Assembly (NCBI GenBank): GCA_009835395.1
Contig: VXXM01000073.1
Coordinates: forward strand, 82-64,081
Length of the DNA: 64,000 nt
Origin: Acidimicrobiia bacterium
GTDB taxonomy: Bacteria > Actinomycetota > Acidimicrobiia > Acidimicrobiales > CATQHL01
Direction of reading: 5' to 3'
Shown here: in pieces, positions 15,940 through 62,225 of the stretch
How the letters are laid out: each line of letters starts with the position of its first letter
Numbering within the stretch: the first letter of the stretch is position 1
Translations under genes and position numbers: made by a program
Notes under the pieces: generated by a model
The model's database searches: none
What the model was told of the DNA's origin: nothing
The model's input: only the letters and a program-made list of their open reading frames with translations

Positions 15940-17619
15940 TCAGGGCTCCCAGAGGAGCGTGTCGGGCCTGAATTGGCTCCAGGCGAACCAGAACGCCTGA
16001 TGGCCTTCGATCTCGACGCCGGCGGCGTCGACGGCGCGCACGCCGCCTCCGTCGAGGCGGAGGCTGACGCCGGCAAGTTCCACCGTTCGGCCGGACTCGA
16101 GCGCGGCGACCGCTGCGTCCACCGGGAAGGCGACGGGGGTGCCGTCGTCGAGGACCACGCCGAAGACCTGTTCGTGCACGGTCAGGCGCCCGTCCAGGTC
16201 ACCGATCGGGAAGATGGGCCCGTCATCGTCCCGGCCGCGCAGTGGGTCGAGGGGGTAGTTGTGGCCGATCCCGCCGTCCCGGGCGACGATCGTCGTCTCC
16301 GGGTGTGCAGCCTTCCACTCACCCCAGGTGGTGGTAACGACGGTCGCCTGGTTCAGGACCACTCCCTTCTCGCGGAGCGGACCCGAGACCGCCTCGCCGG
16401 TGAATGTGTCGAACACCGACTTGGTAACGAGGTCGTACATGACCTTGTTCGACCGTGAGAGCAGCCCGGAGGTCCTGAGCACGGGCGTCTCGACGCCGGG
16501 GGGAACGTCGTCGGTGAAATAGGCCTGGGCGGAGCCGCACAGCGTGCAGTAGGGGAAGCCGATCCGGCGCCCGCCGAGCGTGTCGTTGACCATCTCGTGG
16601 ATTTCCATGAAGTTCTTCGGGTATGCCCGGGCTTCGCCGCCGATCACGACGGCGAAGACGACGCGGTCGTCGGGATACCAGGCGCCTCCGGCGGCGTCGG
16701 TGACCGGGGGGTCGTCGCGGGCCGGGATGCAGCCCCGGACACACCGCTCCGGGTCGCCGAGCGGGCGGTCGTCGATCCGCACGCCCCCCCAACTCACGAG
16801 TCGCCAGTCGATGTTGGCGTCACGATCGTCGAAGAATGGCTGCCAGCCCGGCTCCACCAGCGTGAACAGCCGCTCCTTGTAGTCGACGTAACCCTCGAAG
16901 GCGGGCAGATCCCAGGCGATCAGGTGATCGGTGACCGATTGCCACGGGCTGCGGGCTGCCACGGGGTCATCGGCCAGGCTCACACCCGTCAAGGTCTCGA
17001 AGGTGGACACCGCCGCCTCGTGGACCTCGCCGTAGTAGAAGAACCGGAGGAGGTCGGAGAGGATCCAGCCCAGCCGGGCATCCCCGGACTCGCCGAGCGC
17101 ACTGAGCGCGGCGAGGTCGACCTCGGTGGTCATGGTGGACCAGACGGTCTCGAGGTCGCCGGCCGCCGTCTGCCCGAGTGGGCCGACCGGCACCTCGGGC
17201 GAGGGCGGGAACTCGTAACCGCGGAAGTTTCGCAGGGTGGCGCTTTCGATCGGGTGCAAGCCGGCTCCATCCGGCTCCGGGGGGCCGTCAGCGGTCTCCT
17301 GCACCTCGGCGACCGATCCGGCGCCGTTGGCCGGCTCCAACTCGACGACATCCTCGGCGCCACCGGCCGGCGGGGCCGGGATGGCGACCGGATCGGAGCC
17401 GTCGGGGTCAGGCGCTGCATCGGGGGCGGGCACGTCCTCCGAATCCGAGCCTGCGGCGGGCGGCGGATCAGCAGCGGGGGGAGCCGGCATGTCACCGCCC
17501 CCGGCCCCCGGCTCAGCCGACGGCGCGGCGCGACCGGCCGGCTGCTCATCGGCTCCCGAACAGGCGGCGGCCAGGAACACGAACCCAACCAGCACGATGC
17601 AGACACGCCGCACGAACAC
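15940..17619 (-). CDS. Secreted lipoprotein with C-terminal DUF3179 domain
   Basis: 559 aa. Signal peptide + lipobox-like FLAAAC, then an acidic Pro/Ala-rich linker. C-terminal part carries DUF3179 hallmarks (ARAYPKNFMEIHEMVND, YCTLCGS, TSGLLSRSNKVMYD). Confidence 0.7.
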   Translation of the reverse strand: MFVRRVCIVLVGFVFLAAACSGADEQPAGRAAPSAEPGAGGGDMPAPPAADPPPAAGSDSEDVPAPDAAPDPDGSDPVAIPAPPAGGAEDVVELEPANGAGSVAEVQETADGPPEPDGAGLHPIESATLRNFRGYEFPPSPEVPVGPLGQTAAGDLETVWSTMTTEVDLAALSALGESGDARLGWILSDLLRFFYYGEVHEAAVSTFETLTGVSLADDPVAARSPWQSVTDHLIAWDLPAFEGYVDYKERLFTLVEPGWQPFFDDRDANIDWRLVSWGGVRIDDRPLGDPERCVRGCIPARDDPPVTDAAGGAWYPDDRVVFAVVIGGEARAYPKNFMEIHEMVNDTLGGRRIGFPYCTLCGSAQAYFTDDVPPGVETPVLRTSGLLSRSNKVMYDLVTKSVFDTFTGEAVSGPLREKGVVLNQATVVTTTWGEWKAAHPETTIVARDGGIGHNYPLDPLRGRDDDGPIFPIGDLDGRLTVHEQVFGVVLDDGTPVAFPVDAAVAALESGRTVELAGVSLRLDGGGVRAVDAAGVEIEGHQAFWFAWSQFRPDTLLWEP

Positions 17620-17780: not shown

Positions 17781-18932
17781 TTACTCAGCAGCCTCGTAGG
17801 CCGGCTTCCGGGCCAGGAAGCAGTACAAGGGCGTGAAGATCCCTGCCTTCCCCCCGCTGACATACGCCTCAGCCGATCGATTCATGAGGCCGATGACCTT
17901 GGCCGAACCCCGCGGGAAGACTCGCACGATCTCCGCCAACCTGATCACTTCCTGAACGGCTCTGCGGCCCGCCGGGACGCGGACGAGCGCACGGTGCCAA
18001 CCCCCGTAGCGGCCCTCCATGGGCGCGTACCAGGGAACCTCGCCGACATTCCTGTCCGTGGCCTCCAGAACCTCGAATCCGGCCGACTCGAGCGCCTGAT
18101 TGACATCTGCGAAGGTGGGGATCTCCTTCAACACGATGTACCGCATGAGGTCCTGCTTGATGGACTGGTGTTCGGTGGAGGTCGGATCGAAATCGTCGGT
18201 CAGGCACATTTCCTGGCCCCAGAACAGCGCGCCGGGCCGCAGGAGGCGGAAGATCTCCGCGAATGCCTCCACCCGGTCGGGGGCATAGCACGTCGACTCA
18301 ATGGCATAGCCCCTGTCGAATGAGGCAGCCTCGATGCTGCTCATATCCATGATGTTGGACTTGAGGCAGTCCACCTTCCCATCCAGGCCGGCTTCGCGAT
18401 TGCGAACTCTGACCTGCTCGAGTTGGTGATCGTTGTTGTTGATACCAACCACGCTGACGCCTGCCTCCGCTGCAAGACGGCGCATCAGTGCGCCGAATCC
18501 GCACCCCACATCGACAACCTGCATCCCCTCCTGAAGCCTCAGCTTGTCGATCATCACCCGCTGGTGCCGAGCAATGGCCTGCGCCAACGTCTCGTCGTGC
18601 GCCAAGGGCGCAAACTGCAACGATTCACTCCAGCCGAACAACATGAATCTGTTGCAGAGGTCGTAATAGTCATTGACTGTTGTGGTGTGATCGTAGGCTG
18701 GGGAATCCGCGTGGCCGGCGCTGGAACGCTCGATCCAGCTCTCGATGTCCGCCACGACTGCCGGGACATCCCGGTCTCGATACGCGGCGCGCAGGGAACC
18801 GGCGAGCCCGCCGGGCGCCATCAACGACCTGCTCGCACGTCGGAGTACGGGATCACTAAAGCCGGTATTCTTCGCGAGGGATGCCAACGATGTCAATCCG
18901 GCCCACCGAGCCCGCCAACGCCCTGTCGCCAC
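17781..18932 (-). CDS. Sterol 24-C-methyltransferase (ERG6/SMT1) family SAM-dependent methyltransferase
   Basis: Three SMT signature regions: YYDLCNRFMLFGWSESLQFAP (region I, cf. YEYGWG.SFHFA); VDVGCGFGALMRR (SAM site); YAIESTCYAPD (cf. YAIEATCHAP). The C-terminal Sterol_MT_C-like tail ends GIFTPLYCFLARKP (cf. IFTPMYFFVARKP). Start uncertain: GTG 18932 has GGAG abutting it, and ATG 18821 is a plausible alternative. Confidence 0.8.
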   Translation of the reverse strand: MATGRWRARWAGLTSLASLAKNTGFSDPVLRRASRSLMAPGGLAGSLRAAYRDRDVPAVVADIESWIERSSAGHADSPAYDHTTTVNDYYDLCNRFMLFGWSESLQFAPLAHDETLAQAIARHQRVMIDKLRLQEGMQVVDVGCGFGALMRRLAAEAGVSVVGINNNDHQLEQVRVRNREAGLDGKVDCLKSNIMDMSSIEAASFDRGYAIESTCYAPDRVEAFAEIFRLLRPGALFWGQEMCLTDDFDPTSTEHQSIKQDLMRYIVLKEIPTFADVNQALESAGFEVLEATDRNVGEVPWYAPMEGRYGGWHRALVRVPAGRRAVQEVIRLAEIVRVFPRGSAKVIGLMNRSAEAYVSGGKAGIFTPLYCFLARKPAYEAAE

Positions 18933-19987
18933 CTCCTTTCCCCGAGGGCTGGTACTTCCTCGCGAGCCGACGAGCCGTGGAGAAGGCGAAGCTCATACAG
19001 AAGACCTGGATGGGCGAGAGCATCATCATCTGGTGCGACGACGACGGACGCATCTGCGTAGCCGAGTCCCATTGCCCGCACCTCGGCGCGGATCTGGGGC
19101 CCGAAGCGGGCGGGCGTGTCTGCGACGGCCGGCTCGTCTGCCCGTTCCACGGCTTCGAGTACGACACCGGCGGCCAGTGCGTGGCCACTCCCTTCGCGCC
19201 CGCACCGAAGGCCGCCCGACTGCGGGTCTTCGAGACGACCGAAGTCCTAGGCCTCATCTTCGCCTGGTGGGGAATCGGAGGACGGCCGCCGCAATGGAAC
19301 CTGCACCCCGACCCGCTGGACCAGACCGGCTGGAGCAGCCTCAGCATCCAGACCCTCCGCTTTCCCGGCCATCCTCAGGAGACGGCCGAGAACGCCGTCG
19401 ACCTGGCCCACTTCCGCTACGTCCACGGCTACCACAACGTGAGTCGCATCAAGCCTGTGTCCGTGGACGGGCACTGTCTCCTGAGCCGGTTCGACTTCGC
19501 GAGCAAGCGCACGATCGCAGGATTCCCGTACTTGACGCTCAATATGACCGCCACCACCCACGTCTGGGGGCTCGGCTGCTCGTTCGTCGAGGTCCGCGAG
19601 CACTCGACGCCCTTCGACATGCGCTTCTGGGTCCTGGCGACGCCGGTCGACGGAGAACTCATCGACTTGTCGCTGGTCACGCAGGTGGGGGGGATGAGCG
19701 ACCCGAAGCGCCGGATCGCAGGCCTGGGATTCCTCCCGGTCCCGCTGCGTGCGCGCGTCATGAACCGGATTCTGACTCCCATGCAGAAGCGGGACGTCCT
19801 GCAGGACGTGAAGATCTGGAGCCGCAAGCAGCACCTGCGCCGCCCGCGCCTGGCCCGTTCCGACGGCGAGATCATGCGGTACCGGGCCTATTGCCGCCAG
19901 TTCTACCCCGCCCCGCCCGGTGGTAACCACAACGACAAGGGTGATCACGAGGCCCGCGAGAAGGCCCGCGAGTCCCAGCTGCAGTAG
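18890..19987 (+). CDS. Rieske [2Fe-2S] non-heme-iron oxygenase, KshA/Neverland-like
   Basis: Rieske motif CPHLG...x17...CPFHGF. Mononuclear-iron motif ENAVDLAHFRYVHG. KshA-family C-terminal DVKIWSRKQ. ATG 18890 sits 9 nt after GAGGG; track start 18881 is also possible. Divergent from the methyltransferase. Confidence 0.85.
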   Translation: MSIRPTEPANALSPPPFPEGWYFLASRRAVEKAKLIQKTWMGESIIIWCDDDGRICVAESHCPHLGADLGPEAGGRVCDGRLVCPFHGFEYDTGGQCVATPFAPAPKAARLRVFETTEVLGLIFAWWGIGGRPPQWNLHPDPLDQTGWSSLSIQTLRFPGHPQETAENAVDLAHFRYVHGYHNVSRIKPVSVDGHCLLSRFDFASKRTIAGFPYLTLNMTATTHVWGLGCSFVEVREHSTPFDMRFWVLATPVDGELIDLSLVTQVGGMSDPKRRIAGLGFLPVPLRARVMNRILTPMQKRDVLQDVKIWSRKQHLRRPRLARSDGEIMRYRAYCRQFYPAPPGGNHNDKGDHEAREKARESQLQ

Positions 19988-20079
19988 CCGGACCCGCCCA
20001 TAGTACGCGTTATGTCGTAGACGACCGGTCCCGCGGTGTGTCCCGGGGCTTCAACGGGCGTCAGGTACAGTCGTCTGGC

Positions 20080-22560
20080 ATGAACCGCCTGCTGGATAGG
20101 TTCAGCCGGTTAGTCACGGCCCGCCCGTGGATCACGATCGGTGTCCTAGTACTCATCACTGTTGTGCTGGCCATGGGGGCGACGCGACGGGCGCCCCCGA
20201 CGGAGGGGGCGTCGGTGGCACTGCTCCCGCCCGGCAACGCCGTCGCCGAAGCGGTGGCCGACATCGACGAACTCTTCGGGGATCACAGCGATGTGAATAC
20301 CGTGACGCTGGTCTTCCGCGGCGAGGTGCTCACACCCGGCGGGCTCTCCCAGATGGACGCCCTCCTCGACGACATCCTCGCCGAGCCGGGCGTGGCGCCG
20401 CTCCTGGCGCCGTCCGATCCGATCGTGGCGCCCAGTTCGCTGGTGGGGTTCGTACTCGGCACCGACGACCTCTCGTCGATCACACAGGCGGAGATCGACT
20501 CGGTGCGCGGCCTCCCGGAGATCGGTGCGGCGCTCAACGCCCTGACCGGCAACGACACGGACGGCACCCCGGTCGGGATCGCCAACATCCGCCTGCTCGA
20601 CACGGGCGACGAACGAGTCCTCGACATCGAACGGCGGATCGACGATCTGGCGCTGGCCGCCGAGGGCCCGCTGCGGGTGACCAGCGTCTCGACGGCGGTC
20701 GTCGAGGACGAGTACACGGAGGCCACCGAGTCGGGGATGGTGCCGCTGATCGGGATCGCGCTGCTGCTGATCGCGGCGCTGATCATGCTCTTCATGCGGA
20801 CGCTCTCGGATCTGCTGCTCACGCTGGCGGGACTCCTGTTCTCGGTGATCTGGATCGTCGGGCTCGAGGGCTGGCTCGGGCCGGAGGCGCTGGGGTGGAT
20901 CGGTCCGCCGAGCTCGCTCTCGACGATGGTGCCGATCATCATGATCAGCCTCACGGTGGACTACGCCATCCAGGCCATCTCGCACTACCGCGAGCAGCGC
21001 ACCGAGGGTCTCCCCGTGCTGCAGGCGATCCGGACGGGGCTGCGAAACGTCGCCGTACCGCTGGTGCTGGCCGCCGTCACGACGATCGCCAGCTTCCTGG
21101 CCAACCTGTTCTCACCGATATCGACGATCGCCGACTTCGGCATCATTGCGGGCCTCGGCGTGGGACTGAGCCTGCTCGTGATGCTGACGCTGATTCCGGC
21201 CGGGCGGACGATCATCGACCGGCGCCGCGAGGCACGCGGCAAGCTCAAGGAGCCCCGCCCGATCTCCGCGGCGCTGCCCGGCATCGGACGGGCGGCGGAA
21301 GTCATCGGGGCAGGGGTGGCGCGCCGTCCCGCGCCCTACCTCATCGCCGTGGTCGGCATAACGATCTGGATGGGTTTCTCGGCCACCGGACTCAAGTCGG
21401 AGTTCACCATCCGCGACATCCTGCCCCGGGGCGGGACCGCGCTGAACGACCTGGAGACGCTCGACGCGGCCGTCGGCGGCTCGACGCAACTGGCCAGCGT
21501 GCTCGTGACGGCCGAGGCCACCGAGACCCGCACGCTCCTCAACCTGCAGGATCTGGAGGCCGCCTTCGCGGACGAGCAGCGCCGCCCGGCGGCGGCGGCG
21601 GGACCGCTGGAGGCATCGTACGAGTCGCTCGTGGCCGACTGGACCCACGACAGCGGCGAGCCCGGCGACAACTACGACCCGGAACTCGCCGCGCTCTACT
21701 ACGAGGCCGCGGCGGAGGTGCAACTGGATCCGGTGCTGATGCAGGAACTCCTGGACAGGCTCGGGGAGAGGGAACCCGCCCTCGGGCGCGCCCTGGTCAA
21801 CAACCGGGACGGCACTGATGCGCTCCTGCTCCAGTTCTCGAGCTACACGGACGATCCGGCGGCGACCGCCGTGATCCAGGAGGACATCGAGGCGCTCTGG
21901 TCCGGCGATGACGACGCCATCACGGCCACGTCGGAGGCCATCCTGGCCGTCGAGGTCACCGACCAGATCACGGCCCGGCAGACCGAGGCGATCAGCACGA
22001 CCATCGCCATCGCCCTCGGCATCCTCGCCCTCTTCTTCTGGGTGACGCTGCGCCGGCCCACGCTGGGGATCATCGCGGTCGGACCGATCGTGCTAGTGCT
22101 CATCTGGGTACTGGGCACGATGGCCCTGCTGGGCATCCCCTACACACTGATCACCTCGATCATCACGGCGCTATCCATCGGTATCGGCGTGGACTACACC
22201 ATCCACGTGATCCATCGCTACCGCGAGGAGTTCTCCCGGGTGCGCAACCCGGAGAAGGCCGCGATCCGGACGCTCGCCACCACTGGCTCGGCGCTGCTGG
22301 GATCCGCGCTGACGACGGCCTTCGGGTTCGGCGTGCTGGTGTTCTCGCCGGTCGCGGGGACCCAGCAGTTCGGCATCACCGCGGCGATCACGATCGCCTA
22401 CTCGCTGCTGGTCGCCATCCTGGTGGTGCCGCCGGCCATGACCGTCTGGGGCGCCTACGAGAACGCGCGCCTCCGCTCGACGGTGCAGCGCCTGTGGGAC
22501 GACCTCGACGTGGCCGCCGAGGAGATCCAGCGCCGCCACGAGGAGGAGGGCGCCACGTAG
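20080..22560 (+). CDS. MMPL/HpnN-like RND-superfamily lipid transporter (paralogue 1)
   Basis: About 826 aa from ATG 20080 (MNRLLDRFSRLV; track ORF starts 14 codons earlier). Two 6-TM bundles, each ending in ..VDYAIQAISHYREQ / GVDYTIHVIHRYREE, plus two large extracytoplasmic domains. Confidence 0.8.
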   Translation: MNRLLDRFSRLVTARPWITIGVLVLITVVLAMGATRRAPPTEGASVALLPPGNAVAEAVADIDELFGDHSDVNTVTLVFRGEVLTPGGLSQMDALLDDILAEPGVAPLLAPSDPIVAPSSLVGFVLGTDDLSSITQAEIDSVRGLPEIGAALNALTGNDTDGTPVGIANIRLLDTGDERVLDIERRIDDLALAAEGPLRVTSVSTAVVEDEYTEATESGMVPLIGIALLLIAALIMLFMRTLSDLLLTLAGLLFSVIWIVGLEGWLGPEALGWIGPPSSLSTMVPIIMISLTVDYAIQAISHYREQRTEGLPVLQAIRTGLRNVAVPLVLAAVTTIASFLANLFSPISTIADFGIIAGLGVGLSLLVMLTLIPAGRTIIDRRREARGKLKEPRPISAALPGIGRAAEVIGAGVARRPAPYLIAVVGITIWMGFSATGLKSEFTIRDILPRGGTALNDLETLDAAVGGSTQLASVLVTAEATETRTLLNLQDLEAAFADEQRRPAAAAGPLEASYESLVADWTHDSGEPGDNYDPELAALYYEAAAEVQLDPVLMQELLDRLGEREPALGRALVNNRDGTDALLLQFSSYTDDPAATAVIQEDIEALWSGDDDAITATSEAILAVEVTDQITARQTEAISTTIAIALGILALFFWVTLRRPTLGIIAVGPIVLVLIWVLGTMALLGIPYTLITSIITALSIGIGVDYTIHVIHRYREEFSRVRNPEKAAIRTLATTGSALLGSALTTAFGFGVLVFSPVAGTQQFGITAAITIAYSLLVAILVVPPAMTVWGAYENARLRSTVQRLWDDLDVAAEEIQRRHEEEGAT

Positions 22561-24936: not shown

Positions 24937-24951
24937 CAGGGAGAAGCCGTG

Positions 24952-25497
24952 ATGCTCAGGATCTTCCAAAACACCGCGATCGCAAGCGGGATCGCCGTCG
25001 CCGCGTTGATCGTCGCTCTGATCGCCCTGTTTTCGCCCCTCCGGGAATCGTCATCGCGGGGCGACGGTCCCGACCCGGTCACCGTCGGAGTGCCCCAGCA
25101 GCCGGCGGAAACCGTCGCCTTCGTTCAGGAGGCTCTGGACTTCTACGACTCCGAGGGGCGCCAGGCCACCATCGACCACTACAACTCCCCGGACAGCGCC
25201 GACGGCCAGAACTACCTGTTCATCCTCGACGAGGACGGCGTCCTCGTCGCACATCTCAACCAGGATCTCCTGGGCAGGGACGTGCACACCAGCTTCGGCG
25301 TCGACGTGGACGGCAACCGCTTCGGTCTCTTGATGCTGGAGGCGACCTCCGAGGGGATGTGGATCGACTACGTCTACCTCAACCCGCACACCGGGTTCCG
25401 GGAACTGAAACACTCCTGGGTCGTCGGTCACGACGGGCTGGTCTTCGGCTCGGGGTGGTACGAACTGCAGCGGCCGTCCATCGTGGAGTTCGTCTAG
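24952..25497 (+). CDS. Membrane-anchored single-Cache (sCache_2-like) domain protein without output domain
   Basis: N-terminal TM (IASGIAVAALIVALIALF), then a Cache-like core (NYLFILDEDGVLVAHLNQDLLGRD ... WIDYVYLNPHTG ... KHSWVVGHDGLVFGSGWY). ATG 24952 sits 5 nt after GGGAGAAG; the track lists GTG 24949. Confidence 0.6.
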   Translation: MLRIFQNTAIASGIAVAALIVALIALFSPLRESSSRGDGPDPVTVGVPQQPAETVAFVQEALDFYDSEGRQATIDHYNSPDSADGQNYLFILDEDGVLVAHLNQDLLGRDVHTSFGVDVDGNRFGLLMLEATSEGMWIDYVYLNPHTGFRELKHSWVVGHDGLVFGSGWYELQRPSIVEFV

Positions 25498-25532
25498 GAG
25501 ACGCCGTCCGCCTACAGGCGCGCAGCGGCAAG

Positions 25533-25556
25533 CGGGCGGGTTGGAGAGCCCGCCCG
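25533..25556 (+). terminator. GC-rich hairpin downstream of the Cache gene (possible intrinsic terminator)
   Basis: CGGGCGGG-ttggagag-CCCGCCCG, an 8-bp perfect stem with an 8-nt loop. No clear U-tract. Confidence 0.4.
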
Positions 25557-25600
25557 GGTCTGGCAGGATCAGCGAAGAGAGATGCAGGAAGGAAGCGACC

Positions 25601-27040
25601 ATGATCGATGCGCTGAATCAGCTCGGGGAGTTGCTCCTCGACGGTGACGCCCCGCATGCCAACGGCAAGCTGGACGTGTTCGATCCGACCACAGGCGACC
25701 TGATCGCCGGCGTCGCCACGTCCATGGTGGATGACTGCCTGGCGGCCGTGGAGACGGCGGAACAGGCGGCCGGCGGCTGGGCGGCCGCGCCGCCGCGCGA
25801 GCGGGCCGAGATCTTGCGTCGCTGCTACGAGACGATGATGGCCGAACAGGCCCAGATCGCCGCGCTGCTGCAACTCGAGAACGGCAAGCCCATGGCCGAG
25901 GCCCTCGGTGAGGTGGCGTACGCGGCCGACTTCTTCCGCTGGTTCAGCGAGGAGGCGGTGCGCATCGCCGGGGAGGTGCGCCGCGCGCCGATGGGCGACA
26001 AGCGCATCATCGTGCTGCCCGAGCCGGTGGGGGTCTCCCTGCAGATCACGCCCTGGAACTTCCCCGCCGCCATGCCGGTACGAAAGATCGCACCGGCGCT
26101 CGCTGCGGGATGCACCACCATCGTGAAACCGGCACCGGCCACACCGCTGACCGCCTATTACATCGCCGATCTGATGGAACGCTGCGGCACACCGGTGGGC
26201 GTGGTCAACCTGGTGCTCCCCGAACCGCCGAATGAGGCCACGGTGGCGATGCTGGCGCACCGGGCCGTGCACAAGGTGTCCTTCACCGGCTCGATAGCGG
26301 TCGGCAAGCACCTGCTGCGCCTCGCCGCCGACCGGGTGCTGCGAACCAGCATGGAGTTGGGCGGCAACGCCCCGTTCGTGGTGCTGGCCGACGCCGACGT
26401 GGAGGTGGCCACCGAGGCCGCCATCGCCGCCAAGATGCGCAACACCGGCGCCACGTGCGTTGCTCCGAACCGGCTGTACGTGCACGAGAGGGTCGCCGAC
26501 GACTTCACCGAGGCGCTCAGCGCCCGCATGGCCGGCCTCACCGTCGGTTATGACCGGCAGCCCGACGCCCAGGTCGGCGCGCTGATCAGCACCCGCGAGC
26601 GCGAGAAGGTGGCCGGTCTTGTGACCTCAGCCGTGGACCGCGGCGCCAAGGTGGTGACCGGCGGGCGGGCGCCGGACTGCGGCGGCTATTTCTACGAGCC
26701 GACCGTGCTGGCCGACGTCGAGCCGGACGCGCCCATCCTGGCCAGGGAGATCTTCGGGCCGGTGGCGCCCCTGGTGCGCTTCCGGGATGAGGCCCGCGCG
26801 ATCGAGATGGCCAACGACACCGACGCCGGGTTGATCGCCTACGTCATGAGCGGCGACATGGGCCATGGTCTGACCGTCGGCGAGCAACTCGATGCGGGCA
26901 TGGTCGCCGTGAACAGGGGCATCATCTCCGATGCGTCGGCCCCGTTCGGGGGTGTCAAGGAGAGCGGCATTGGCCGCGAGGGAGGCTTCGAGGGGATCGA
27001 GGAGTACCTCGAACGCAAATACGTGGCGAGCAACTGGTAG
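25601..27040 (+). CDS. gabD: NAD(P)-dependent succinate-semialdehyde-type aldehyde dehydrogenase
   Basis: 479 aa from ATG 25601 (GGAAGGAAG upstream). ALDH motifs ITPWNFP, IVKPAP.TP, MELGGNAP and the catalytic Cys in NTGATCVAPNR. The gabD assignment is family-level only. Confidence 0.8.
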   Translation: MIDALNQLGELLLDGDAPHANGKLDVFDPTTGDLIAGVATSMVDDCLAAVETAEQAAGGWAAAPPRERAEILRRCYETMMAEQAQIAALLQLENGKPMAEALGEVAYAADFFRWFSEEAVRIAGEVRRAPMGDKRIIVLPEPVGVSLQITPWNFPAAMPVRKIAPALAAGCTTIVKPAPATPLTAYYIADLMERCGTPVGVVNLVLPEPPNEATVAMLAHRAVHKVSFTGSIAVGKHLLRLAADRVLRTSMELGGNAPFVVLADADVEVATEAAIAAKMRNTGATCVAPNRLYVHERVADDFTEALSARMAGLTVGYDRQPDAQVGALISTREREKVAGLVTSAVDRGAKVVTGGRAPDCGGYFYEPTVLADVEPDAPILAREIFGPVAPLVRFRDEARAIEMANDTDAGLIAYVMSGDMGHGLTVGEQLDAGMVAVNRGIISDASAPFGGVKESGIGREGGFEGIEEYLERKYVASNW

Positions 27041-27116
27041 AAGATCTGTCGTCGCGGCAATACACGGCAAACCTGAAGTAACGTCAGGACGCGCTGTGCA
27101 AGGACGATCTTCGAGC

Positions 27117-28295
27117 ATGAAACTCCCCACCGACTACGACCACCCGGGTGTTGCGCGGGCCCGAGTTCTCGAGCCCGAGATGGTCGAGAACTATCTGGCG
27201 CACACCCTGGTCGGGGACCCCGTGGCCGACGCCGCTGTCGAGGCGCTCGCCGCGCTGGACCGCGGGCGGTCGAGCCGGCTGATCGCGGCGTTCGTCAACA
27301 GCAGCGGCTCCGACACCTGGCCCGACGCACCGCCGGCGGTGCGGGAACTCTTCGTGGACGCCACGACGCCGCCCGATTGGCTTGACCTGCCGGCCCTCGC
27401 GCCCGGCGTGCGTATGTTCCACCGGAACACCAAGTTGGTGCTGGCCTCGATGGTGGCGGCCGTCTTGGTGGAGGGCTTCGCGTCGAACATCAGCCAGTCC
27501 TTCTTCATCACGGGACGCCTGCGCGACCAGGGGGTTCGCCGGCTGCAGCAGAACAACCGGCACATGGTGGAGATCTTCTTCCCGGACGGGATGGAGAGCT
27601 ACGGCGACGGCTGGAAGCTGTCGGTGCGGATCCGGCTCGTGCACGCCCACGTCAGGCGGCTGCTCGCCAACTCCGAGGACTGGGATACCCCGGCGTGGGG
27701 GGTCCCGCTGAGCGCCGCGCACGTCGGCTACGCCATCACGGCGTTCTCGGCGAGGCTCCTCGTACACATTCGAAGCCTCGGAGCCAGCTTCAGCGCCGAG
27801 GAGGCGGCCAGCTTCATGGCCACCTGGCGCTACTCCGGGCATCTGATGGGAGTGCCGGACTCCATCCTCTACCGCGACGAGGCCGAGGCGCTTCGACTCT
27901 TCGCCGTGGGCGGGCTGTGCGAACCGGAACCCGACGATGCGTCCATCGCCCTGGCGAACGCCCTGGTTAACTCCGCCCCCCTGGTTGTGGGGATCGACGA
28001 TCCGGTCGAGCGGCGGAATCTGGCCAAATACGTCTACAAGGTCTCGCGCGCCATGATCGGCCACGACCTCGCCGACAAGCTCCGCTACCCCAAGCAGTCC
28101 AGCTTCGGCGTGCTGGGTTGGTTCCGCTTCCAATCCCGCTACGACCGGCTCCTGAAGCGCTGCCGCCCGAAGTACGAACGCCGGAACAACTTCACGAGCT
28201 TCACGACCCTGCTGTCGGGTTCGAGATACGACGACGAGGGCATCACCTACCGGATGCCCGACCACGTCTACGCCGAGCGCTCCAACAACTGGTAG
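27117..28295 (+). CDS. MpaB/DUF2236-family oxygenase (rubber-oxygenase/Lcp-related fold)
   Basis: 392 aa from ATG 27117 (MKLPTDYD). Conserved core WKLSVRIRLVHAHVRRLL and W..P.WG.PL..AH, characteristic of DUF2236. Confidence 0.65.
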   Translation: MKLPTDYDHPGVARARVLEPEMVENYLAHTLVGDPVADAAVEALAALDRGRSSRLIAAFVNSSGSDTWPDAPPAVRELFVDATTPPDWLDLPALAPGVRMFHRNTKLVLASMVAAVLVEGFASNISQSFFITGRLRDQGVRRLQQNNRHMVEIFFPDGMESYGDGWKLSVRIRLVHAHVRRLLANSEDWDTPAWGVPLSAAHVGYAITAFSARLLVHIRSLGASFSAEEAASFMATWRYSGHLMGVPDSILYRDEAEALRLFAVGGLCEPEPDDASIALANALVNSAPLVVGIDDPVERRNLAKYVYKVSRAMIGHDLADKLRYPKQSSFGVLGWFRFQSRYDRLLKRCRPKYERRNNFTSFTTLLSGSRYDDEGITYRMPDHVYAERSNNW

Positions 28296-29504
28296 ATGGG
28301 CGACGACGAATCCGGGGGGCGTCACGGCGTCGGGCCCGCGGCGACCTCGGCAACCGATTTCCTGGGAATCGACTCGCTGCTGAACGAGGAGCAGTTGCTG
28401 CTGCGGGACACGGTGCGCCGCTGGGTGGCCGAGCGGATCCTGCCAGAGGTCGGAGATTGGTTCGAGCGGGGGGTCTTCCCGGCCGAGACGATCGGACCCG
28501 AGCTGGGTGCTCTGGGTCTACTGGGCATGCACCTCGAGGGCTACGGCTGCGCCGGGGCCGGCGCCACCGACTACGGCCTGGCGTGCATGGAGCTGGAGGC
28601 CGGGGACTCAGGCGTGCGCAGCTTCATGAGCGTGCAGGGTTCGCTGGCGATGTTCCCGATCCGCGCCTTCGGCAGCGAGGAGCAGCGGCGGCAGTGGCTG
28701 CCCGCCATGTCCGCCGGCGAGGCGATCGGCTGCTTCGGCCTGACCGAGCCCGACGCCGGCAGTGACCCGGCAAGCATGCGGACCCGGGCGCGCCGCGACG
28801 GCTCCGACTGGATCCTCAACGGCACCAAGATGTGGATCACGAACGGCTCGATCGCCCATGTCGCGGTCGTGTGGGCGCAGACCGCCGACGGCGTGCGGGG
28901 GTTCGTCGTGCCGACCGAGGTGCCGGGCTTCGGTGCTCGCGACATTCCCCGCAAGCTCTCACTGCGCGCCTCGGTGACGTCTGAACTGGTGCTGGAGGAT
29001 GTGCGCCTGCCCGCCGACGCGGTCCTGCCGGAAGTTGTCGGCATGCGGGGGCCGCTGTCGTGCCTAAACGAAGCCCGCTTCGGAATCCTCTTCGGCGCCG
29101 TCGGCGCGGCCCGCGCCTGCTATGAGGCGGCGCTGGGCTACGCGACCGAGCGCGACGCCTTCGGTGGGCCCATCAGTCGCTTTCAACTCACCCAGCAGAA
29201 GCTGGTCGAGATGATGATCGCCGTCCAGCGGGGCACCTTGCTGGCGCTGCACCTCGGGCGGCTGCGCGACGCCGGACAACTCAGTGCCGCGCAGATCAGC
29301 GTCGGCAAGCTCGACAACGTGCGCATGGCCCTGGAGGTGGCCCGCAGCGCCCGCGGCGTGCTGGGCGCCAACGGCATCACGCTCGAGTACCCGGTGATCA
29401 GGCACATGAACAACCTCGAGTCGGTCTACACCTACGAGGGCACCCACGAGATCCACACCCTCATCCTCGGCCAGGCGCTCACCGGGCGGTCCGCCTTCGC
29501 CTGA
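28296..29504 (+). CDS. Acyl-CoA dehydrogenase, glutaryl-CoA dehydrogenase-like
   Basis: 402 aa. GCFGLTEPDAGSDP, WITNG, and C-terminal YEGTHEIHTLILGQALTG, typical of the GCDH subfamily. Confidence 0.85.
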   Translation: MGDDESGGRHGVGPAATSATDFLGIDSLLNEEQLLLRDTVRRWVAERILPEVGDWFERGVFPAETIGPELGALGLLGMHLEGYGCAGAGATDYGLACMELEAGDSGVRSFMSVQGSLAMFPIRAFGSEEQRRQWLPAMSAGEAIGCFGLTEPDAGSDPASMRTRARRDGSDWILNGTKMWITNGSIAHVAVVWAQTADGVRGFVVPTEVPGFGARDIPRKLSLRASVTSELVLEDVRLPADAVLPEVVGMRGPLSCLNEARFGILFGAVGAARACYEAALGYATERDAFGGPISRFQLTQQKLVEMMIAVQRGTLLALHLGRLRDAGQLSAAQISVGKLDNVRMALEVARSARGVLGANGITLEYPVIRHMNNLESVYTYEGTHEIHTLILGQALTGRSAFA

Positions 29505-29544
29505 TCACCACCACCGCGCCCGCCCCCGGAACTAGCGTCACAGC

Positions 29545-32007
29545 ATGTTCGGTTGGCAGGCCCGGATCATCCAGAAGTCGCCGAAACGGGTGCTGGCGGC
29601 ATTGGGAGCAGTGACGCTCGCCCTGCTCGCCGGCGTCCTGGTGCAGGATCCGCCCGAGGGCCCCATCGACTCCACCAGCATCTTCCTGCCCTCCGGCAGT
29701 GACCTGGCGGCGGCGACCGACGTCATCAGGGAGAGCTTTCCCGCGGCTGCCGACCTGCGGGTGGTCCAGATCCTCGCCAAGGGCGACGTCCTGGCGGCGG
29801 ACTCGCTACGGGCGATCAACGACCTGCAGATCGCCATCAGCAGCGATCCCGCTATTCAGCCGTTCCTGGTCGCCGAACCCCTCTACGGCTATGTCCAACT
29901 CATCGAACTGGCGGCCGCCGAGGCGGGCCTGTCCCTGACGACCATCACCGACACCCAGGTCTCCCTGGGCCTGGCTCAACTGGCGGGCGATCCGCAACGG
30001 GCAGAACTGCACGACCTGCTGCAGCGCTTCATCGCGCGAGACGCAACCGGGGAGCCGATGGCGGGGCTCTCCCTGGTCATCCTGGACGACGCCGGCGACG
30101 CGCTCGGGCAGGAGCAGGCGCAATTGCGCGCTCACGAGATCGCCGAGTCCGCCGACACCAGCGCGCTGGACACTTCGATCATCACCTTGGCGCAGAGCGA
30201 CATCGAGGCCAAGGAGGCGCGAGACCGGAACCTCATCGTGGTCACCCTCATCGCCCTGGCCGTGATCGTGGTGCTCCTGGCCGTCTTCTACCGAACCCAG
30301 TCCGACGTCCACATCACCATGGCGGGCCTCGGCATGACGATCCTGTGGATGCTCGGCGCGCAGGCCTGGCTGTCACCCGGCGGTGCCGGCATCGTGGACC
30401 CGGACAACATCCTGCTGACGCTGATACCCGTCCTGCTGATCAGCCTGGCGGTGGACTACGCGCTGCAGATCACCGGCCGCTACCGGGAGGCGCTGCGCGA
30501 CGACGCCGAACGGGCGCCCGACGCCTCGGGCCGGGCCATCGCACGCTCCGTGCGGCTCTGCGGCGTGCCGGTGCTGCTGGCAGCGGGCACGACCGCCGTC
30601 AGCCTGCTCGCCAACCTGACGAGCCGCTTCAAGCCCATTGCCGAGTTCGGCATCATCGCCAGCATCGGTGTCGTCTCGGGCTGGATCGTGATGACCAGCT
30701 TCGTCCCGGCCGCCCGCCTGACGCTGGACCGGTGGCGCGCCACCAAGGGCCGGGAGCCGGCGGTCCAGCCCATAGCCGACACGATTCCCGGCGCTGCGGC
30801 CGCCCTCCCCCGCATCGCCGCGATCGTGGTGCGCCGGCCGCTCCCGGTTCTCGCCGCCGCCATCGCCGTCACGGTCCTGGCCGTCGTGGCCGCCACCAAC
30901 CTCAGCACGACGTTCGCGGTGAAGGACTTCCTGCCGCGGGACTCCGAGGTGGCGGAGAACTTCGACTACCTGGACGAGAACTTCGACGGGAGCGCCACCT
31001 TGATGACGGTGCTCATCGAGACCGATCTCAGCAGTGGTCGGGCGGTTCGTGACCTCAGCGACCTCCACACGGTCCTCGTCGACCCGGCCCGGCGCCCCGA
31101 CGGCATCATCGGACCTCCCCTGTCCTCGGCCGGGACGCTCCTCGCCGAACGGACCGACGATGAGGCTGCCGTCGCCGATGCCTTCGCCGAACTGCGCAGC
31201 GACGTGACGGCGGCCGAGGGGGACGTCCGGCGCGCGTGGGCACTGCTCGAAGGTGTCGACGCCGCCGGCTTCGCCGAGGTCCTCGACTTCCGGGCCGACG
31301 GCCCCGACCGCACCATCATCCAGATACCGGTTGCGGTGGAGAGCAACGAGGCGCTGCAGGAGTTGATCGAGGAGATCGAGGCGCTGTGGGGCGGTGGCGC
31401 CTCGGAGATCACCGTCACGGGAGGAGACGCGCTCATCGCTCTGATCACCGACGAGTTGGCGGCCAGCCAGGTCTCGAGCGTGAGCCTCGTCGTCGCCGCC
31501 GCGCTGGCGATCCTCATCCTCTACTTCGGCCTCCGCGAGCGCCGCCCGCTGCTCGGGCTGATCACGATCCTGCCGATCATCGTGACCCTGGCCTGGCTGC
31601 TTGGCGCCATGTGGCTGTTCGGGATCTCCTACAACATGAGCACCGCCCTCATGGTGGTGCTCACGATCGGGATCGGGGTCGACTACACCATCCACCTCAC
31701 GCACCGCTTCCTGGAGGAGCACCGGGAATCGCCACAGGTCCCCGAGGCATTGCGGCGGGCGATGGTCACCACCGGCGGGGCGCTCCTGGGCAGCGCACTC
31801 ACCACGGCGCTTGGCCTCCTGATGCTGGTGTTCTCCCCGCTGCGGCCGATGCAGGAACTGGGCATCCTCGCCGCCGTCACGATCCTGCTGGGGCTCATCG
31901 CCACCTTCACCGTGCTGCCGCCGCTGCTGGTGCTGTGGTCGCGCTACCACCGCTGGCGCGGTCGCGAAGCCGGAACGCCGAGCCGGCCGGCGAGCACTAC
32001 CGCCTAG
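29545..32007 (+). CDS. MMPL/HpnN-like RND-superfamily lipid transporter (paralogue 2)
   Basis: 820 aa. Same two-bundle architecture as 20080..22560 (SLAVDYALQITGRYRE / GIGVDYTIHLTHRFLEE). Confidence 0.8.
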   Translation: MFGWQARIIQKSPKRVLAALGAVTLALLAGVLVQDPPEGPIDSTSIFLPSGSDLAAATDVIRESFPAAADLRVVQILAKGDVLAADSLRAINDLQIAISSDPAIQPFLVAEPLYGYVQLIELAAAEAGLSLTTITDTQVSLGLAQLAGDPQRAELHDLLQRFIARDATGEPMAGLSLVILDDAGDALGQEQAQLRAHEIAESADTSALDTSIITLAQSDIEAKEARDRNLIVVTLIALAVIVVLLAVFYRTQSDVHITMAGLGMTILWMLGAQAWLSPGGAGIVDPDNILLTLIPVLLISLAVDYALQITGRYREALRDDAERAPDASGRAIARSVRLCGVPVLLAAGTTAVSLLANLTSRFKPIAEFGIIASIGVVSGWIVMTSFVPAARLTLDRWRATKGREPAVQPIADTIPGAAAALPRIAAIVVRRPLPVLAAAIAVTVLAVVAATNLSTTFAVKDFLPRDSEVAENFDYLDENFDGSATLMTVLIETDLSSGRAVRDLSDLHTVLVDPARRPDGIIGPPLSSAGTLLAERTDDEAAVADAFAELRSDVTAAEGDVRRAWALLEGVDAAGFAEVLDFRADGPDRTIIQIPVAVESNEALQELIEEIEALWGGGASEITVTGGDALIALITDELAASQVSSVSLVVAAALAILILYFGLRERRPLLGLITILPIIVTLAWLLGAMWLFGISYNMSTALMVVLTIGIGVDYTIHLTHRFLEEHRESPQVPEALRRAMVTTGGALLGSALTTALGLLMLVFSPLRPMQELGILAAVTILLGLIATFTVLPPLLVLWSRYHRWRGREAGTPSRPASTTA

Positions 32008-53660: not shown

Positions 53661-54554
53661 TCAGCGAGTCACCAGGTGGTAGATGCGTTCGAGATCGTCG
53701 AGATCGGCAAACTCCACCATGAGGCGGCCCTTCTTCTCACCGATCTCGACGCGCACCACCGTCGAGAGAAACTCCGCCAGCAGGTTCTCGAGCTCCAGCA
53801 ATGCCGACTCGCTGACCACGCTGCCGTCGCTCTGCCCATCGGACTCCGCCGCCCGCTTCGCTGGCCCGGCGCCAGCGGCAATCCCCCCTGCTGCCAGAGA
53901 TGACCGCAGGTGGTCCTCCAACTGGCGCACCGACCAACCTTCGCGAACGATCTGGCGTGCAAGGTCCACCTGCTCGGCGGAATCGGCGATGCCGGCGAGC
54001 GCCCGGCCGTGCCCGGCCGACAGCCGGCGGGAAGCAATGAGCTCCTGCACTTCGCCAGGAAGTTGCAGGAGGCGGGTCGAGTTGGTCACAGCCGCCCGGC
54101 TGCGACCCACACGGTTCGCCACCGCCTGCTGGGTGAGTCCGAAGTCCTGCTGCAGCTGCAGGAACGCGGCGGCTTCCTCCAACGGGTTCAGATCCTCCCG
54201 GTGGAGGTTCTCGACGAGCGCCTCCTCGAGTGATTCCTGGTCCTCAGCCGACCGGACAAGCGCTGGAATCGTCTGGAGACCTGCACGCTTGGCCGCCCGC
54301 CAACGCCGCTCACCGGCGATCAGTTCGAAGCGGTCTGCCTCGACCTGCCTCACCAGAACCGGTTGCAGCACGCCGATCCGACCAATCGAGTCAGCGAGAG
54401 CGTCGAGCGGTTCCTCGTCGAAGTGGGTCCGCGGCTGGTTCGTGTTGGGCACAATGCTGACGACCGCGATCTCGCGATAACCGCCCGCGAGGCGGCCGCC
54501 GGTCGGAATGAGAGCGCCCAGGCCTCGGCCCAAGCCGCGCTCACCGTGCGCCAT
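53661..54554 (-). CDS. parB: Chromosome partitioning protein ParB
   Basis: 297 aa. GLGRGLGALI, ParB box IAGERRWRAAKRAGL, HTH GLTQQAVANRVGRSRAAVTN. Confidence 0.9.
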   Translation of the reverse strand: MAHGERGLGRGLGALIPTGGRLAGGYREIAVVSIVPNTNQPRTHFDEEPLDALADSIGRIGVLQPVLVRQVEADRFELIAGERRWRAAKRAGLQTIPALVRSAEDQESLEEALVENLHREDLNPLEEAAAFLQLQQDFGLTQQAVANRVGRSRAAVTNSTRLLQLPGEVQELIASRRLSAGHGRALAGIADSAEQVDLARQIVREGWSVRQLEDHLRSSLAAGGIAAGAGPAKRAAESDGQSDGSVVSESALLELENLLAEFLSTVVRVEIGEKKGRLMVEFADLDDLERIYHLVTR

Positions 54555-55317
54555 TGGCCTCGAACTCCTTGGCCAGAATGCGATACGTCAGGGCGGCCCG
54601 TGAGCGCGGCGAGTACACCGTGATGGGCAAACCCCTCGCCGGTGCCTCGGCAAGGCGCACCGACCGCGGGATCACGGTGTGGCAAACGCGTTCGTCGTAC
54701 AGGCCGCGTACCTCCTGAGACACCTGCTGGGACAGGTTCGTCCTGGCGTCGTACATCACGAGCAACAACCTGGACACGCGCAGATCCGGGTTCAGATGCC
54801 GTCGAATCTGGTCCACGTGCATCGTGAGCTGGGCGAGCCCCTCCAGGGCGAAATACTCGCACTGGATCGGCACGAGCACCTCGCGCACCGCTGTCAGTGC
54901 GTTCACCGCCAGCAGCCCGAGAGCCGGCGGGCAGTCCACGAAGAGGTAGTCGAACTGCCCGATCACGTGCCCGAGCGACGCAGCCAGGCGGCGTTCCCGG
55001 TTGAACGCAGACTGCAGTTCGATTTCGGCGCCCGCCAGATCCAGGTGCGACGGGACAGCCATCAACCCCTCAACGGGGGTCGGCACGATGCAATCCGCCA
55101 TCGACCTGCCGTCCAGCAGGACGTCGTAGACCGAGACCGTGAGTTCCCGGGGATCCAGACCAATGCCCGTGGTGGCGTTCGCCTGGGGATCCATGTCCAC
55201 GACCAGCACCCGCCGTCCCAGTTCGGCCAGGGCAGCAGCGAGGTTGATCGCCGTCGTGGTCTTCCCGACGCCACCCTTCTGGTTGGCGACGGCGATCGTG
55301 CGGCAATCAGATGTCAC
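54541..55317 (-). CDS. parA: Chromosome partitioning ATPase ParA/Soj
   Basis: 258 aa with the deviant Walker A NQKGGVGKTTT. 14-nt overlap with parB. Confidence 0.9.
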   Translation of the reverse strand: MTSDCRTIAVANQKGGVGKTTTAINLAAALAELGRRVLVVDMDPQANATTGIGLDPRELTVSVYDVLLDGRSMADCIVPTPVEGLMAVPSHLDLAGAEIELQSAFNRERRLAASLGHVIGQFDYLFVDCPPALGLLAVNALTAVREVLVPIQCEYFALEGLAQLTMHVDQIRRHLNPDLRVSRLLLVMYDARTNLSQQVSQEVRGLYDERVCHTVIPRSVRLAEAPARGLPITVYSPRSRAALTYRILAKEFEANGAR

Positions 55318-55384
55318 TGGAGCAACACCTCCAACGAGACCGACTGCTCAGGAGTGTAACCGCCCGGTCCTCGCCGGAGGGTGA

Positions 55385-55400
55385 TGTTTCACGTGAAACA
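55385..55400. promoter_or_regulatory. parS centromere-like site (perfect consensus)
   Basis: TGTTTCACGTGAAACA, a perfect 16-bp palindrome identical to the canonical parS consensus. Lies in the parA-rsmG intergenic region. Confidence 0.9.
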
Positions 55401-55452
55401 TAGAGTTCGGATCACACCGCCTCCGTGGCGGCCCGCCTACAGCGAACGCGGC

Positions 55453-57007: not shown

Positions 57008-57014
57008 AGGCCTC

Positions 57015-62216: not shown

Positions 62217-62225
62217 GGAGGCGCG

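Follow-up and report, generated by a model that had tools for sequence, protein, structure and literature searches.

A methyltransferase of a divergent clade within the sterol methyltransferase superfamily, encoded beside a GPP34-P450 fusion gene in a sponge-symbiont Acidimicrobiales bacterium

Sterol methyltransferases (SMTs) of bacteria and their bearing on biomarkers have already been published (PMC10070321), and SMT genes have been noted in sponge-associated Acidimicrobiia (PMC9531527). The question raised by the locus described here is whether a bacterial gene with the motifs of this family can be taken to encode a classical sterol C-24 methyltransferase. The locus lies in a stretch of 64,000 nucleotides from an Acidimicrobiia bacterium (GenBank assembly GCA_009835395.1, contig VXXM01000073.1, positions 82 to 64,081), hereafter the window, and the original prediction, made from the sequence alone, described the gene as a bona fide-looking sterol C-24 methyltransferase homologue. 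The analysis has led to a finding more specific than the one first proposed, namely an SMT-superfamily protein with altered catalytic and pocket residues, from a group apparently restricted to sponge and coral symbionts and linked to a GPP34-cytochrome P450 fusion. The preferred reading, to which a probability of roughly 0.55 is assigned, is that the protein is an S-adenosylmethionine (SAM)-dependent olefin C-methyltransferase of the ERG6/SMT superfamily, belonging to a discrete paralogous clade marked by M81, L89 and I249 (ERG6 numbering throughout), and that it tailors sterols with a non-canonical substrate or regiochemistry. The gene itself is as follows.

17781..18821, minus strand: SMT-superfamily methyltransferase, 346 amino acids from Met38; M81/L89/I249 clade, Q90/A132/L133 subclade

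An open reading frame (ORF) of 383 amino acids is present from a GTG codon at 17781..18932 on the minus strand. Because homologues are 341-346 amino acids long, with N-termini near 'LAGSLRAAYR', the true start is most likely not this upstream GTG at 18932 but Met38 (ATG, 18821), giving 346 amino acids. The Met38 start leaves a 59-bp spacer before a divergent Rieske oxygenase gene (18881), whereas the GTG start gives a 52-bp overlap; the counterpart of this spacer in a related locus, L001, is 75 bp. All four motif strings quoted in support of the prediction (FMLFGWSESLQFAP, VDVGCGFG, YAIESTCYAPD and GIFTPLYCFLARKP) are in the translation and align to Regions I-III and the C-terminus of yeast ERG6. 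BLASTP against ERG6 gave 32% identity over 332 amino acids (E 2e-60) in an alignment that is collinear between Region I and the C-terminus, and Pfam gave Methyltransf_11 at 59.1 bits followed by Sterol_MT_C (PF08498) at 56.3 bits (cut-off 21.7; residues 321-377), so that the protein is a true ERG6/SMT1 homologue and not a chance motif match. The ERG6 reference sequence agrees with preprint 10.64898/2025.12.19.695621 at 27 of 27 numbered residues. Identity to a canonical bacterial SMT is 40%. Residues D125, G127, G129, D189, E195 and W286 are kept, as are Region III (YAIESTCYAP, which includes E195) and G217 of Region IV.

The top-scoring Pfam match is CMAS (67.6 bits, partial, profile positions 7-215 of 273), yet a cyclopropane synthase identity was rejected on the curated NCBIfam models, which score far under their cut-offs (CfaB 61.6 bits against 650, CFA synthase 48.3 against 400, mycolic methyltransferase 40.4 against 390). 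NCBIfam holds no SMT model, and because a canonical paralogue of characterised type also scores under every cut-off, its silence on the window protein is uninformative. Public records of metagenome-assembled genomes (MAGs) label canonical and M81-type SMTs alike only as 'methyltransferase domain-containing protein' or 'class I SAM-dependent methyltransferase'. No SMT structure was found in the PDB by sequence or by fold. An AlphaFold2 model of the window protein (pLDDT 81.9, pTM 0.83) resembles class I methyltransferases, and its PDB fold matches include methylators of C=C bonds (TleD, BezA, and the geranyl and farnesyl diphosphate (GPP/FPP) methyltransferases) and cyclopropane synthases; these matches to a predicted fold would fit olefin C-methylation but do not separate candidate substrates. 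The prenyl C-methyltransferases and cyclopropane synthases among the fold neighbours, and the lead of CMAS in Pfam, could equally be taken as signs that a non-sterol lipid (squalene, a polyprenyl, a hopanoid or an unsaturated acyl chain) is methylated or cyclopropanated and that the linkage to sterol genes is incidental. The Acidimicrobiales gene module also includes an aldehyde dehydrogenase, an acyl-CoA dehydrogenase and a member of the MpaB/Lcp-type isoprenoid-cleaving oxygenase family, and the triterpene methyltransferases of Botryococcus are SMT-like. Such a role is nevertheless improbable given Sterol_MT_C and the full-length ERG6 homology, cyclopropane synthase models that stay far under cut-off (62 against 650 bits), and the repeated adjacency, in several phyla, of oxidosqualene cyclase (OSC), CYP51, ERG24, canonical SMT and sterol-sensing-domain (SSD) transporter genes. 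The clade remains inside the SMT superfamily, physically linked to sterol genes, and does not cluster with non-sterol methyltransferases.

Motif agreement with the SMTs was found to hold only in part. In preprint 10.64898/2025.12.19.695621, 25 residues are common to all functional SMTs; H90 is the proposed deprotonator of the sterol cation, and D125, G129 and P133 serve SAM binding, all four being essential in yeast. Every SMT tested there retains H90 and P133, F89 and T78 are conserved throughout functional SMTs, and, with the sterol docked, positions 81 and 249 are no more than 5 angstroms from its side chain. Of the 25 residues, the window protein has 18 and deviates at seven (T78N, G86S, F89L, H90Q, G132A, P133L and L341M), and it also carries Y81M and D249I. 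Region I reads GWSESLQF where functional SMTs have GWGxxFHF (84-91), and Region II reads DVGCGFGAL where they have DxGxGxxGP (125-133); thus the quoted strings are present and Region III is kept, but Regions I and II depart from the functional consensus. In the sterol pocket, whose inspection had been suggested as a check, the side-chain-lining positions 81, 89 and 249 are changed across the whole clade.

The changes fall into two layers, those shared by the clade (Y81M, F89L, D/N/G249I and T78S/N) and those added in the window sublineage, an Acidimicrobiales subclade (G86S, H90Q, G132A, P133L and L341M). Among the 120 closest database proteins, residue 81 is M and residue 89 is L in all 120, residue 249 is I in 116 and V in 4, residue 90 is H in 95 and Q in 25, and residue 133 is P in 96 and L in 24. 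Judged from these alignments, the side-chain pocket is predicted to be remodelled across the clade. An exhaustive search of 1.84 billion cluster representatives returned scores of 403, 309 and 255 bits and then fell sharply to 225 or less; representatives under the fall have the canonical TDFYEYGWGxSFHF and DVGCGVGGP and D or N at 249, and the clade has the signature xxFMxFGW[GNS]ESL[HQ]F with I249. In a neighbour-joining tree of 123 sequences, which included ERG6 but lacked named references for plant SMTs, STRM and triterpene methyltransferases, the M81 clade stands apart from, and beside, canonical-type sequences including ERG6; the clade with an intermediate sequence, P0125, has bootstrap support of 300/300, as does the window's Q90 subclade. 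With its altered Regions I and II, its seven deviations, its separate clade and an assayed relative that was probably inactive (below), the protein does not bear out the description bona fide-looking.

Replacement of the proposed base H90 and of G132 and P133 in the SAM loop, within a total of 7 of 25 conserved positions changed, might mean that the Q90/L133 sublineage is a pseudoenzyme, a non-catalytic sterol- or SAM-binding partner in its gene module, and the low-confidence stretches of the AlphaFold2 model (residues 66-69 and 261-272) include Region I. This is regarded as very improbable. The window methyltransferase is under purifying selection and is not a decaying copy (ratio of nonsynonymous to synonymous substitution rates, dN/dS, 0.13-0.32 against five orthologues), D189, E195 and the core DxGxGxG motif are all preserved, the best partial Pfam and NCBIfam matches are to CMAS and CfaB, and the subclade is kept in at least five species-level genomes. 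Moreover, there are cyclopropane synthases with a loop of G-A-T/L-M type, and a loop other than Gly-Pro need not block SAM binding.

Relatives of the window methyltransferase were found in at least 594 genomes in a scan of one genome per species, and the locus counts given here cover the best 80 of these. Eleven of the 80 loci also hold a second, canonical-type SMT paralogue, and it is this coexistence that argues for a different role of the M81 clade. In several loci two to four SMT-family paralogues of canonical and M81 types lie adjacent to one another (four in L026; also L020, L034, L043, L054, L056, L058, L068 and L075). Brown et al. (PMC10070321, Supplementary Data 1) listed two ERG6 homologues each in an A. 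aerophoba scaffold, a T. swinhoei Chromatiales MAG and a Nitrospira MAG, with an ERG6 identity of 39-42% for one copy of each pair and of 34.5-35.6% for the other; the copies of lower identity are named '2 of 2' in their Supplementary Table 4 ('A. aerophoba JGIcombinedJ30088_10000835', 'T. swinhoei Chromatiales' and 'Nitrospira coral reef'). Three of the present loci, L075, L097 and L099, are mutually 99.995% identical, one being from an A. aerophoba metagenome, and have the order ERG24, CYP51, squalene epoxidase-oxidosqualene cyclase (SE-OSC), canonical SMT, M81-type SMT, GPP34-P450, which is that of genes _14 to _9 of the Brown scaffold. The M81-type protein of these loci has an ERG6 identity of 35.159%, the published value being 35.16%, and because both identity and gene order agree it appears to match 'A. 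aerophoba 2 of 2'. This copy, with T78S and F89L, shows about 57% identity to the window protein and has M81, L89 and I249 in common with it; the canonical SMT beside it has 0 of 25 deviations and the F81/F83/G249 signature published for the propylating enzyme. A short stretch between the two SMT genes of this A. aerophoba Nitrospira cluster (about 9480-9950 in L075, and also in L097 and L099) encodes 51% identity to the window Rieske protein and may be a truncated Rieske gene or remnant.

Functional SMTs without exception keep F89, and because 'A. aerophoba 2 of 2' has L89 it is counted by inference as inactive on desmosterol and 24-methylenecholesterol, consistent with the reports that 2 of 10 symbiont SMTs and 2 of 14 environmental SMTs were inactive; the preprint authors suggest that inactive SMTs may require other sterol substrates. 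A possibility that is doubtful but to be taken seriously is that the window gene does encode a classical C-24 SMT, one that places a single methyl on the delta-24 bond but prefers another nucleus (e.g., lanosterol, a 4,4-dimethyl or a delta-8 intermediate). Homology to ERG6 runs from end to end, Sterol_MT_C, E195 and Region III are kept, and since a G249I mutant of a bacterial SMT still yields C28 sterols and soybean SMT1 with Region I aromatics changed to leucine loses the second methylation only, M81, L89 and I249 are compatible with a mono-methylating C-24 enzyme. It may also be the only SMT of the Acidimicrobiales, as no canonical one occurs on Acidimicrobiales contigs among the best 120 matches, which reached down to 76% identity, and relatives hold SE-OSC and ERG2. 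Set against this, Q and L replace H90 and P133, which are essential in yeast and kept in all tested SMTs; canonical SMTs occur alongside the clade in those 11 loci, which argues for a different role; and the assayed member of the clade was by the above reasoning inactive on both C-24 substrates.

That a sterol is nonetheless most likely the substrate of the window methyltransferase is argued from relatives and neighbours, because close relatives encode an SE-OSC fusion and the gene module has sterol-type partners. On an Acidimicrobiales chromosome of 3,528,285 bp with a 90%-identical methyltransferase, an SE-OSC lies about 1.1 Mb from the methyltransferase and an ERG2-family gene 5 kb downstream of the SE-OSC; a second SE-OSC fusion is on a 2,951,365-bp contig, and an 83% orthologue is likewise on a 2,951,365-bp contig. 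By gene content, close relatives of the window organism can be predicted to cyclise oxidosqualene, their sterol genes being scattered rather than clustered. Among the 80 loci, an ERG4/ERG24-family reductase (239 bits) adjoins the methyltransferase in 8, a P450 cluster in 6 (the representative, from L017, matches solved CYP51s at 3e-102) and a single-ORF SE-OSC in at least 3. The SE-OSC fusions are of about 1114-1156 amino acids (L054:2157-5618, L056:15430-19236, L075:4351-8019, L169:10001-13345 and L170:10001-13375), and Supplementary Data 1 of PMC10070321 has a single gene ID for ERG1 and ERG7. The ERG24-CYP51-LSS cluster reported in Ircinia symbionts, including Acidimicrobiia (PMC9531527), is the same cluster as in these loci. 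The fusions are 79-91% identical across Nitrospira, Acidimicrobiia and Rhodospirillales, which points to transfer among co-resident symbionts, as that paper proposed.

The neighbourhood of the window methyltransferase was compared by unbiased clustering of greedy non-overlapping ORFs in the 80 genome loci, and the window features in question are listed here.

18822..18880, no strand: divergent intergenic region between the methyltransferase and Rieske genes, 59 bp, 59% G+C, presumed to be their shared promoter region
18881..19987, plus strand: KshA-like Rieske non-haem-iron oxygenase with CPH...CPFH Rieske ligands and an E-x3-D-x2-H-x4-H iron motif
20038..22560, plus strand: RND/MMPL transporter with sterol-sensing domain (HAE3/HpnN-like); Pfam MMPL 148.8, Sterol-sensing 55.5 and Patched 49.8 bits
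22603..24765, minus strand: GPP34 (GOLPH3-like)-cytochrome P450 fusion 'GPP34_L'; Pfam GPP34 100.9 bits (60-261) and p450 136.7 bits (279-709)
24949..32007, plus strand: Acidimicrobiales-specific module extension with, by Pfam, sCache_2, aldehyde dehydrogenase, MpaB/Lcp-type oxygenase, acyl-CoA dehydrogenase and a second MMPL/SSD transporter (29545-32007)
15940..17619, minus strand: DUF3179 protein, downstream of the methyltransferase

The most constant partner is the GPP34-P450 fusion: of the 67 genome loci with complete 10-kb flanks, 58 (87%) have it no more than 10 kb from the methyltransferase, and it is present in 13 of 25 full-flank metagenome loci; a Rieske gene is as close in 43 of the 67 (64%). 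In the window the fusion is 3.7 kb from the methyltransferase, contains the haem-ligand loop YGLGTHVCLG and resembles PDB entries weakly, at about 75-85 bits; its true start is probably near 24630, to judge from homologues of 675 amino acids. Two such fusion genes each occur in L020, L056 and L065. The fusion has been described as monophyletic and exclusive to sponge-symbiotic bacteria, with proposed phosphatidylinositol 4-phosphate (PI4P) binding and phagocytosis evasion (PMC11706023); the text of that paper has no mention of methyltransferase, MMPL or sterol, and the linkage with the methyltransferase clade is apparently new to the literature. For the Rieske neighbour, Pfam gave Rieske at 60.6 bits and KshA_C at 81.6 bits, the metal motifs CPH/CPFH and ENAVDLAHFRYVH are in the translation, and among proteins of known structure the best matches are to KshA, at E 2e-26 across the N-terminal 200 residues. 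An SdmA identity was rejected, with NF052579 at 32 bits against a cut-off of 600 and matching in the Rieske domain only.

The transporter at 20038..22560 is syntenic in Acidimicrobiales and Dehalococcoidia loci, its NCBIfam HAE3 and HpnN scores being under cut-off. MMPL/SSD transporters of type a occur in 21 and of type b in 14 of the 80 loci (SSD transporters in about 35 together), AcrB, mostly with HlyD and OEP, in 12, and TonB-dependent receptors and MFS transporters also recur near the clade; the variety of recurrent transporters leads to the view that transporter type follows the cell envelope. Outside Acidimicrobiales, a 471-amino-acid FAD amine-oxidase-like protein is found in 21 of the 80 loci (L016, L034, L039, L042, L045, L051, L053, L054 and others), with a curated match only at its N-terminal FAD-binding region (protoporphyrinogen oxidase models, far under cut-off). 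The gene order of the extension at 24949..32007 is repeated in L001, L004 and L006, and the extension is present in only 5-7 of the 80 loci, with five Acidimicrobiales ones (L009-L013) at high identity. The longest ORFs for its aldehyde dehydrogenase (25541-27040) and MpaB/Lcp-type oxygenase (26931-28295) overlap by 110 nt; the orthologues are called at 479 and 392 amino acids, and the real starts probably lie farther downstream. The DUF3179 gene, a conserved neighbour only in Acidimicrobiales, is probably outside the core module.

The actinobacterial context of the prediction was confirmed, as the closest genomes are Acidimicrobiales MAGs with nine neighbouring genes syntenic. The best match is IRC4_bin_37, at 98% protein identity, followed by Acidimicrobiales MAGs at 69-91%, and mean nucleotide identity to Acidimicrobiales loci is 87-91%. 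The best 80 genomes are uncultured MAGs only, from about 15 phyla or classes, and include Acidimicrobiales, Dehalococcoidia, Gamma- and Alphaproteobacteria, Arenicellales, Nitrospira/Nitrospirales, Nitrospinota, Binatia, Gemmatimonadota, Thermodesulfobacteriota, Latescibacterota, Dadabacteria, Rhodothermaceae and 'Candidatus Poriferihabitaceae'. That last name and the MAG isolate names (IRC, RHO, COS and Plut) hint at sponge or coral hosts, the reading of these host codes being unconfirmed. In JGI, 108 stretches among 241 million metagenome records encode a relative of the window methyltransferase. All traceable matches of at least 49% identity come from sponge metagenomes according to Supplementary Table 4 of PMC10070321, in which LXNI is Sarcotragus foetidus, LXNJ is Petrosia ficiformis, and JGIcombinedJ30088 and Ga0209021 are Aplysina aerophoba; only matches of 34-39% come from clearly different record series. 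The clade is thus apparently restricted to sponge and coral symbionts, and the window organism is a sponge-symbiont member of the Acidimicrobiales. The presence of parA (54541-55317), yidC (57015-58283), dnaA (59465-60889) and dnaN (61122-62216) in the window (region 54541-63323) places the locus on the core chromosome. The cumulative GC-skew minimum is at about 60-61 kb, in the stretch of lowest G+C of the window (61%), and the chromosomal replication origin is probably located there, about 40 kb from the methyltransferase.

The original prediction also called the gene the most AT-rich in the window, which holds for the 45 genes called: its G+C is 62.5%, against 69.5% for the window, the next lowest being dnaA (63.1%) and the GPP34-P450 gene (63.8%). 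Its G+C at third codon positions is 78%, against 85-92% in neighbouring genes. The quoted 60-nt line of about 53% G+C was likewise found, with three such lines in the gene at 53.3% and only 1.1% of all window lines that low; the sole stretch of the same size with lower G+C is the dnaA/oriC region near 60 kb. Low G+C was considered as a trait of the whole clade and rejected: across phyla the methyltransferase does not differ in G+C from its locus (mean difference 0.000, sd 0.029), and the deficit is specific to Acidimicrobiales, where all five orthologues are 4-6 points under the locus. This fits gain from a donor of lower G+C with incomplete amelioration. Identity along the locus is mosaic. 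Against L009 the window has nucleotide identities of 97.7% for both the SMT and the Rieske gene, 94.7% for the first MMPL gene and 83-90% for the flanks; against L013 it has 75.7% for the SMT, 86.9% for the Rieske gene and 92-95% from the first MMPL gene to the MpaB gene (no sCache match). Because of this mosaic, recent recombination is suggested, with the SMT-Rieske pair swapped as a cassette among related Acidimicrobiales (17781-22560).

Under the preferred reading, of a sterol-tailoring olefin C-methyltransferase, the window enzyme would methylate a double bond of a sterol, with SAM as the donor. Since positions 81, 89 and 249 are changed clade-wide, and H90Q and the replacement of Gly-Pro by Ala-Leu are found in the window sublineage, classical methylation of the delta-24 sterols desmosterol or 24-methylenecholesterol is probably not what the enzyme catalyses. 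The methyltransferase would act in a sterol-tailoring and trafficking module of sponge symbionts together with the GPP34-P450 fusion and the KshA-like Rieske oxygenase, roles that for these partners, as for the transporter, are suggested by family membership and linkage. The SSD-containing RND transporter would handle lipid, diderm bacteria would use other envelope transporters, and the sterol could be either bacterium-made or host-derived.

Several points weigh against this reading. No SE, OSC, CYP51 or ERG24 gene was found in the 64-kb window, so that the sterol substrate rests on relatives and neighbours, and there is no enzyme of the clade with a demonstrated product. H90Q and P133L could amount to loss of catalysis in the window sublineage, and the inactivity attributed to '2 of 2' could reflect poor expression or nucleus specificity, two substrates having been assayed. 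The neighbour-joining tree of 123 sequences lacks named STRM and triterpene-methyltransferase references, and the exact M81 bipartition excluding P0125 was recovered in only 163 of 300 replicates (54-58% support). Finally, the remaining JGI matches of at least 49% identity (MKWU01, Ga0209754, Ga0209544, Ga0209543, Ga0209022, JGI24796 and JGI24797) and some MAGs are of unconfirmed host.

The significance of the clade lies in sterol biomarkers and in symbiosis. Side-chain-alkylated steranes (24-isopropylcholestane and 26-methylstigmastane) are central evidence for early animals, an argument that bacterial SMTs already complicate; the annotation 'bacterial SMT' does not predict chemistry, and counting M81-clade genes as C-24 methyltransferases would mislead such arguments. 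With a defined set of enzymes (methyltransferase, P450 fusion, Rieske oxygenase, FAD oxidase and SSD transporter), the origin of unconventional sponge sterols becomes directly testable, and the tight genomic association with the GPP34-P450 fusion suggests that this hallmark of sponge symbiosis, so far read only as a phagocytosis-evasion factor, modifies sterols or lipids. A bolder proposal, which is considered unlikely, is that the M81/L89/I249 clade is the missing unconventional sponge-sterol methyltransferase, e.g., a 26-SMT acting on the delta-25(27) products ((epi)codisterol, clerosterol) of the adjacent canonical paralogue; Brown et al. (PMC10070321) considered the 26-SMT undiscovered and noted that bacterial SMTs make its presumed substrate, (epi)codisterol. 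Were this so, the clade would supply precursors of aplysterol-type 26-methyl sterols, bacterial symbionts would account for part of the 26-methylstigmastane 'sponge' biomarker signal, and the GPP34-P450 fusion and Rieske oxygenase would also act in sterol tailoring and not as anti-phagocytosis effectors.

In comparison with known systems, the locus does not represent a new kind of system, as bacterial SMTs are published and a member of the clade has apparently been assayed already. With ERG6, plant SMT1/SMT2 and the bacterial SMTs of PMC10070321, the window protein has in common the architecture of a class I methyltransferase with Sterol_MT_C, alignable Regions I-IV and 18 of the 25 residues, and relatives within the clade share gene clusters with OSC, CYP51 and ERG24; it differs in its separate clade, its pocket changes, its apparent sponge and coral hosts and the assayed member counted as inactive. 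The '2 of 2' SMTs of PMC10070321 resemble it, with the same M81/L89/I249 residues (in the first of them, matched by its fingerprint) and a low ERG6 identity of 34.5-35.6%, but they keep H90 and G132-P133 where the window protein has Q90 and A132-L133, and they adjoin genes of de novo sterol synthesis whereas the window gene adjoins only Rieske, MMPL and GPP34-P450 genes. The Rieske neighbour has the KshA_C domain and both metal motifs in common with KshA (PDB 4QDC and 2ZYL), and KshA and SdmA both act on steroid or sterol nuclei; its match is at E 2e-26 to KshA and only 32 against 600 bits to SdmA, and no KshB-type reductase is in the window module. GPP34_L of PMC11706023 is the same fusion as that in the window, whose lineage of sponge Acidimicrobiales fits the sponge-associated Actinobacteriota of that paper, but where PI4P binding and interference with phagocytosis were proposed there, the linkage described here suggests lipid or sterol modification. 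The STRM-type C-4 methyltransferases of nematodes, dinoflagellates and haptophytes (PMC9136925), eukaryotic members of the SMT superfamily likened here by description only, have had their regiochemistry changed to C-4 of 3-ketosteroids and thus provide a precedent for a divergent SMT paralogue that methylates elsewhere.

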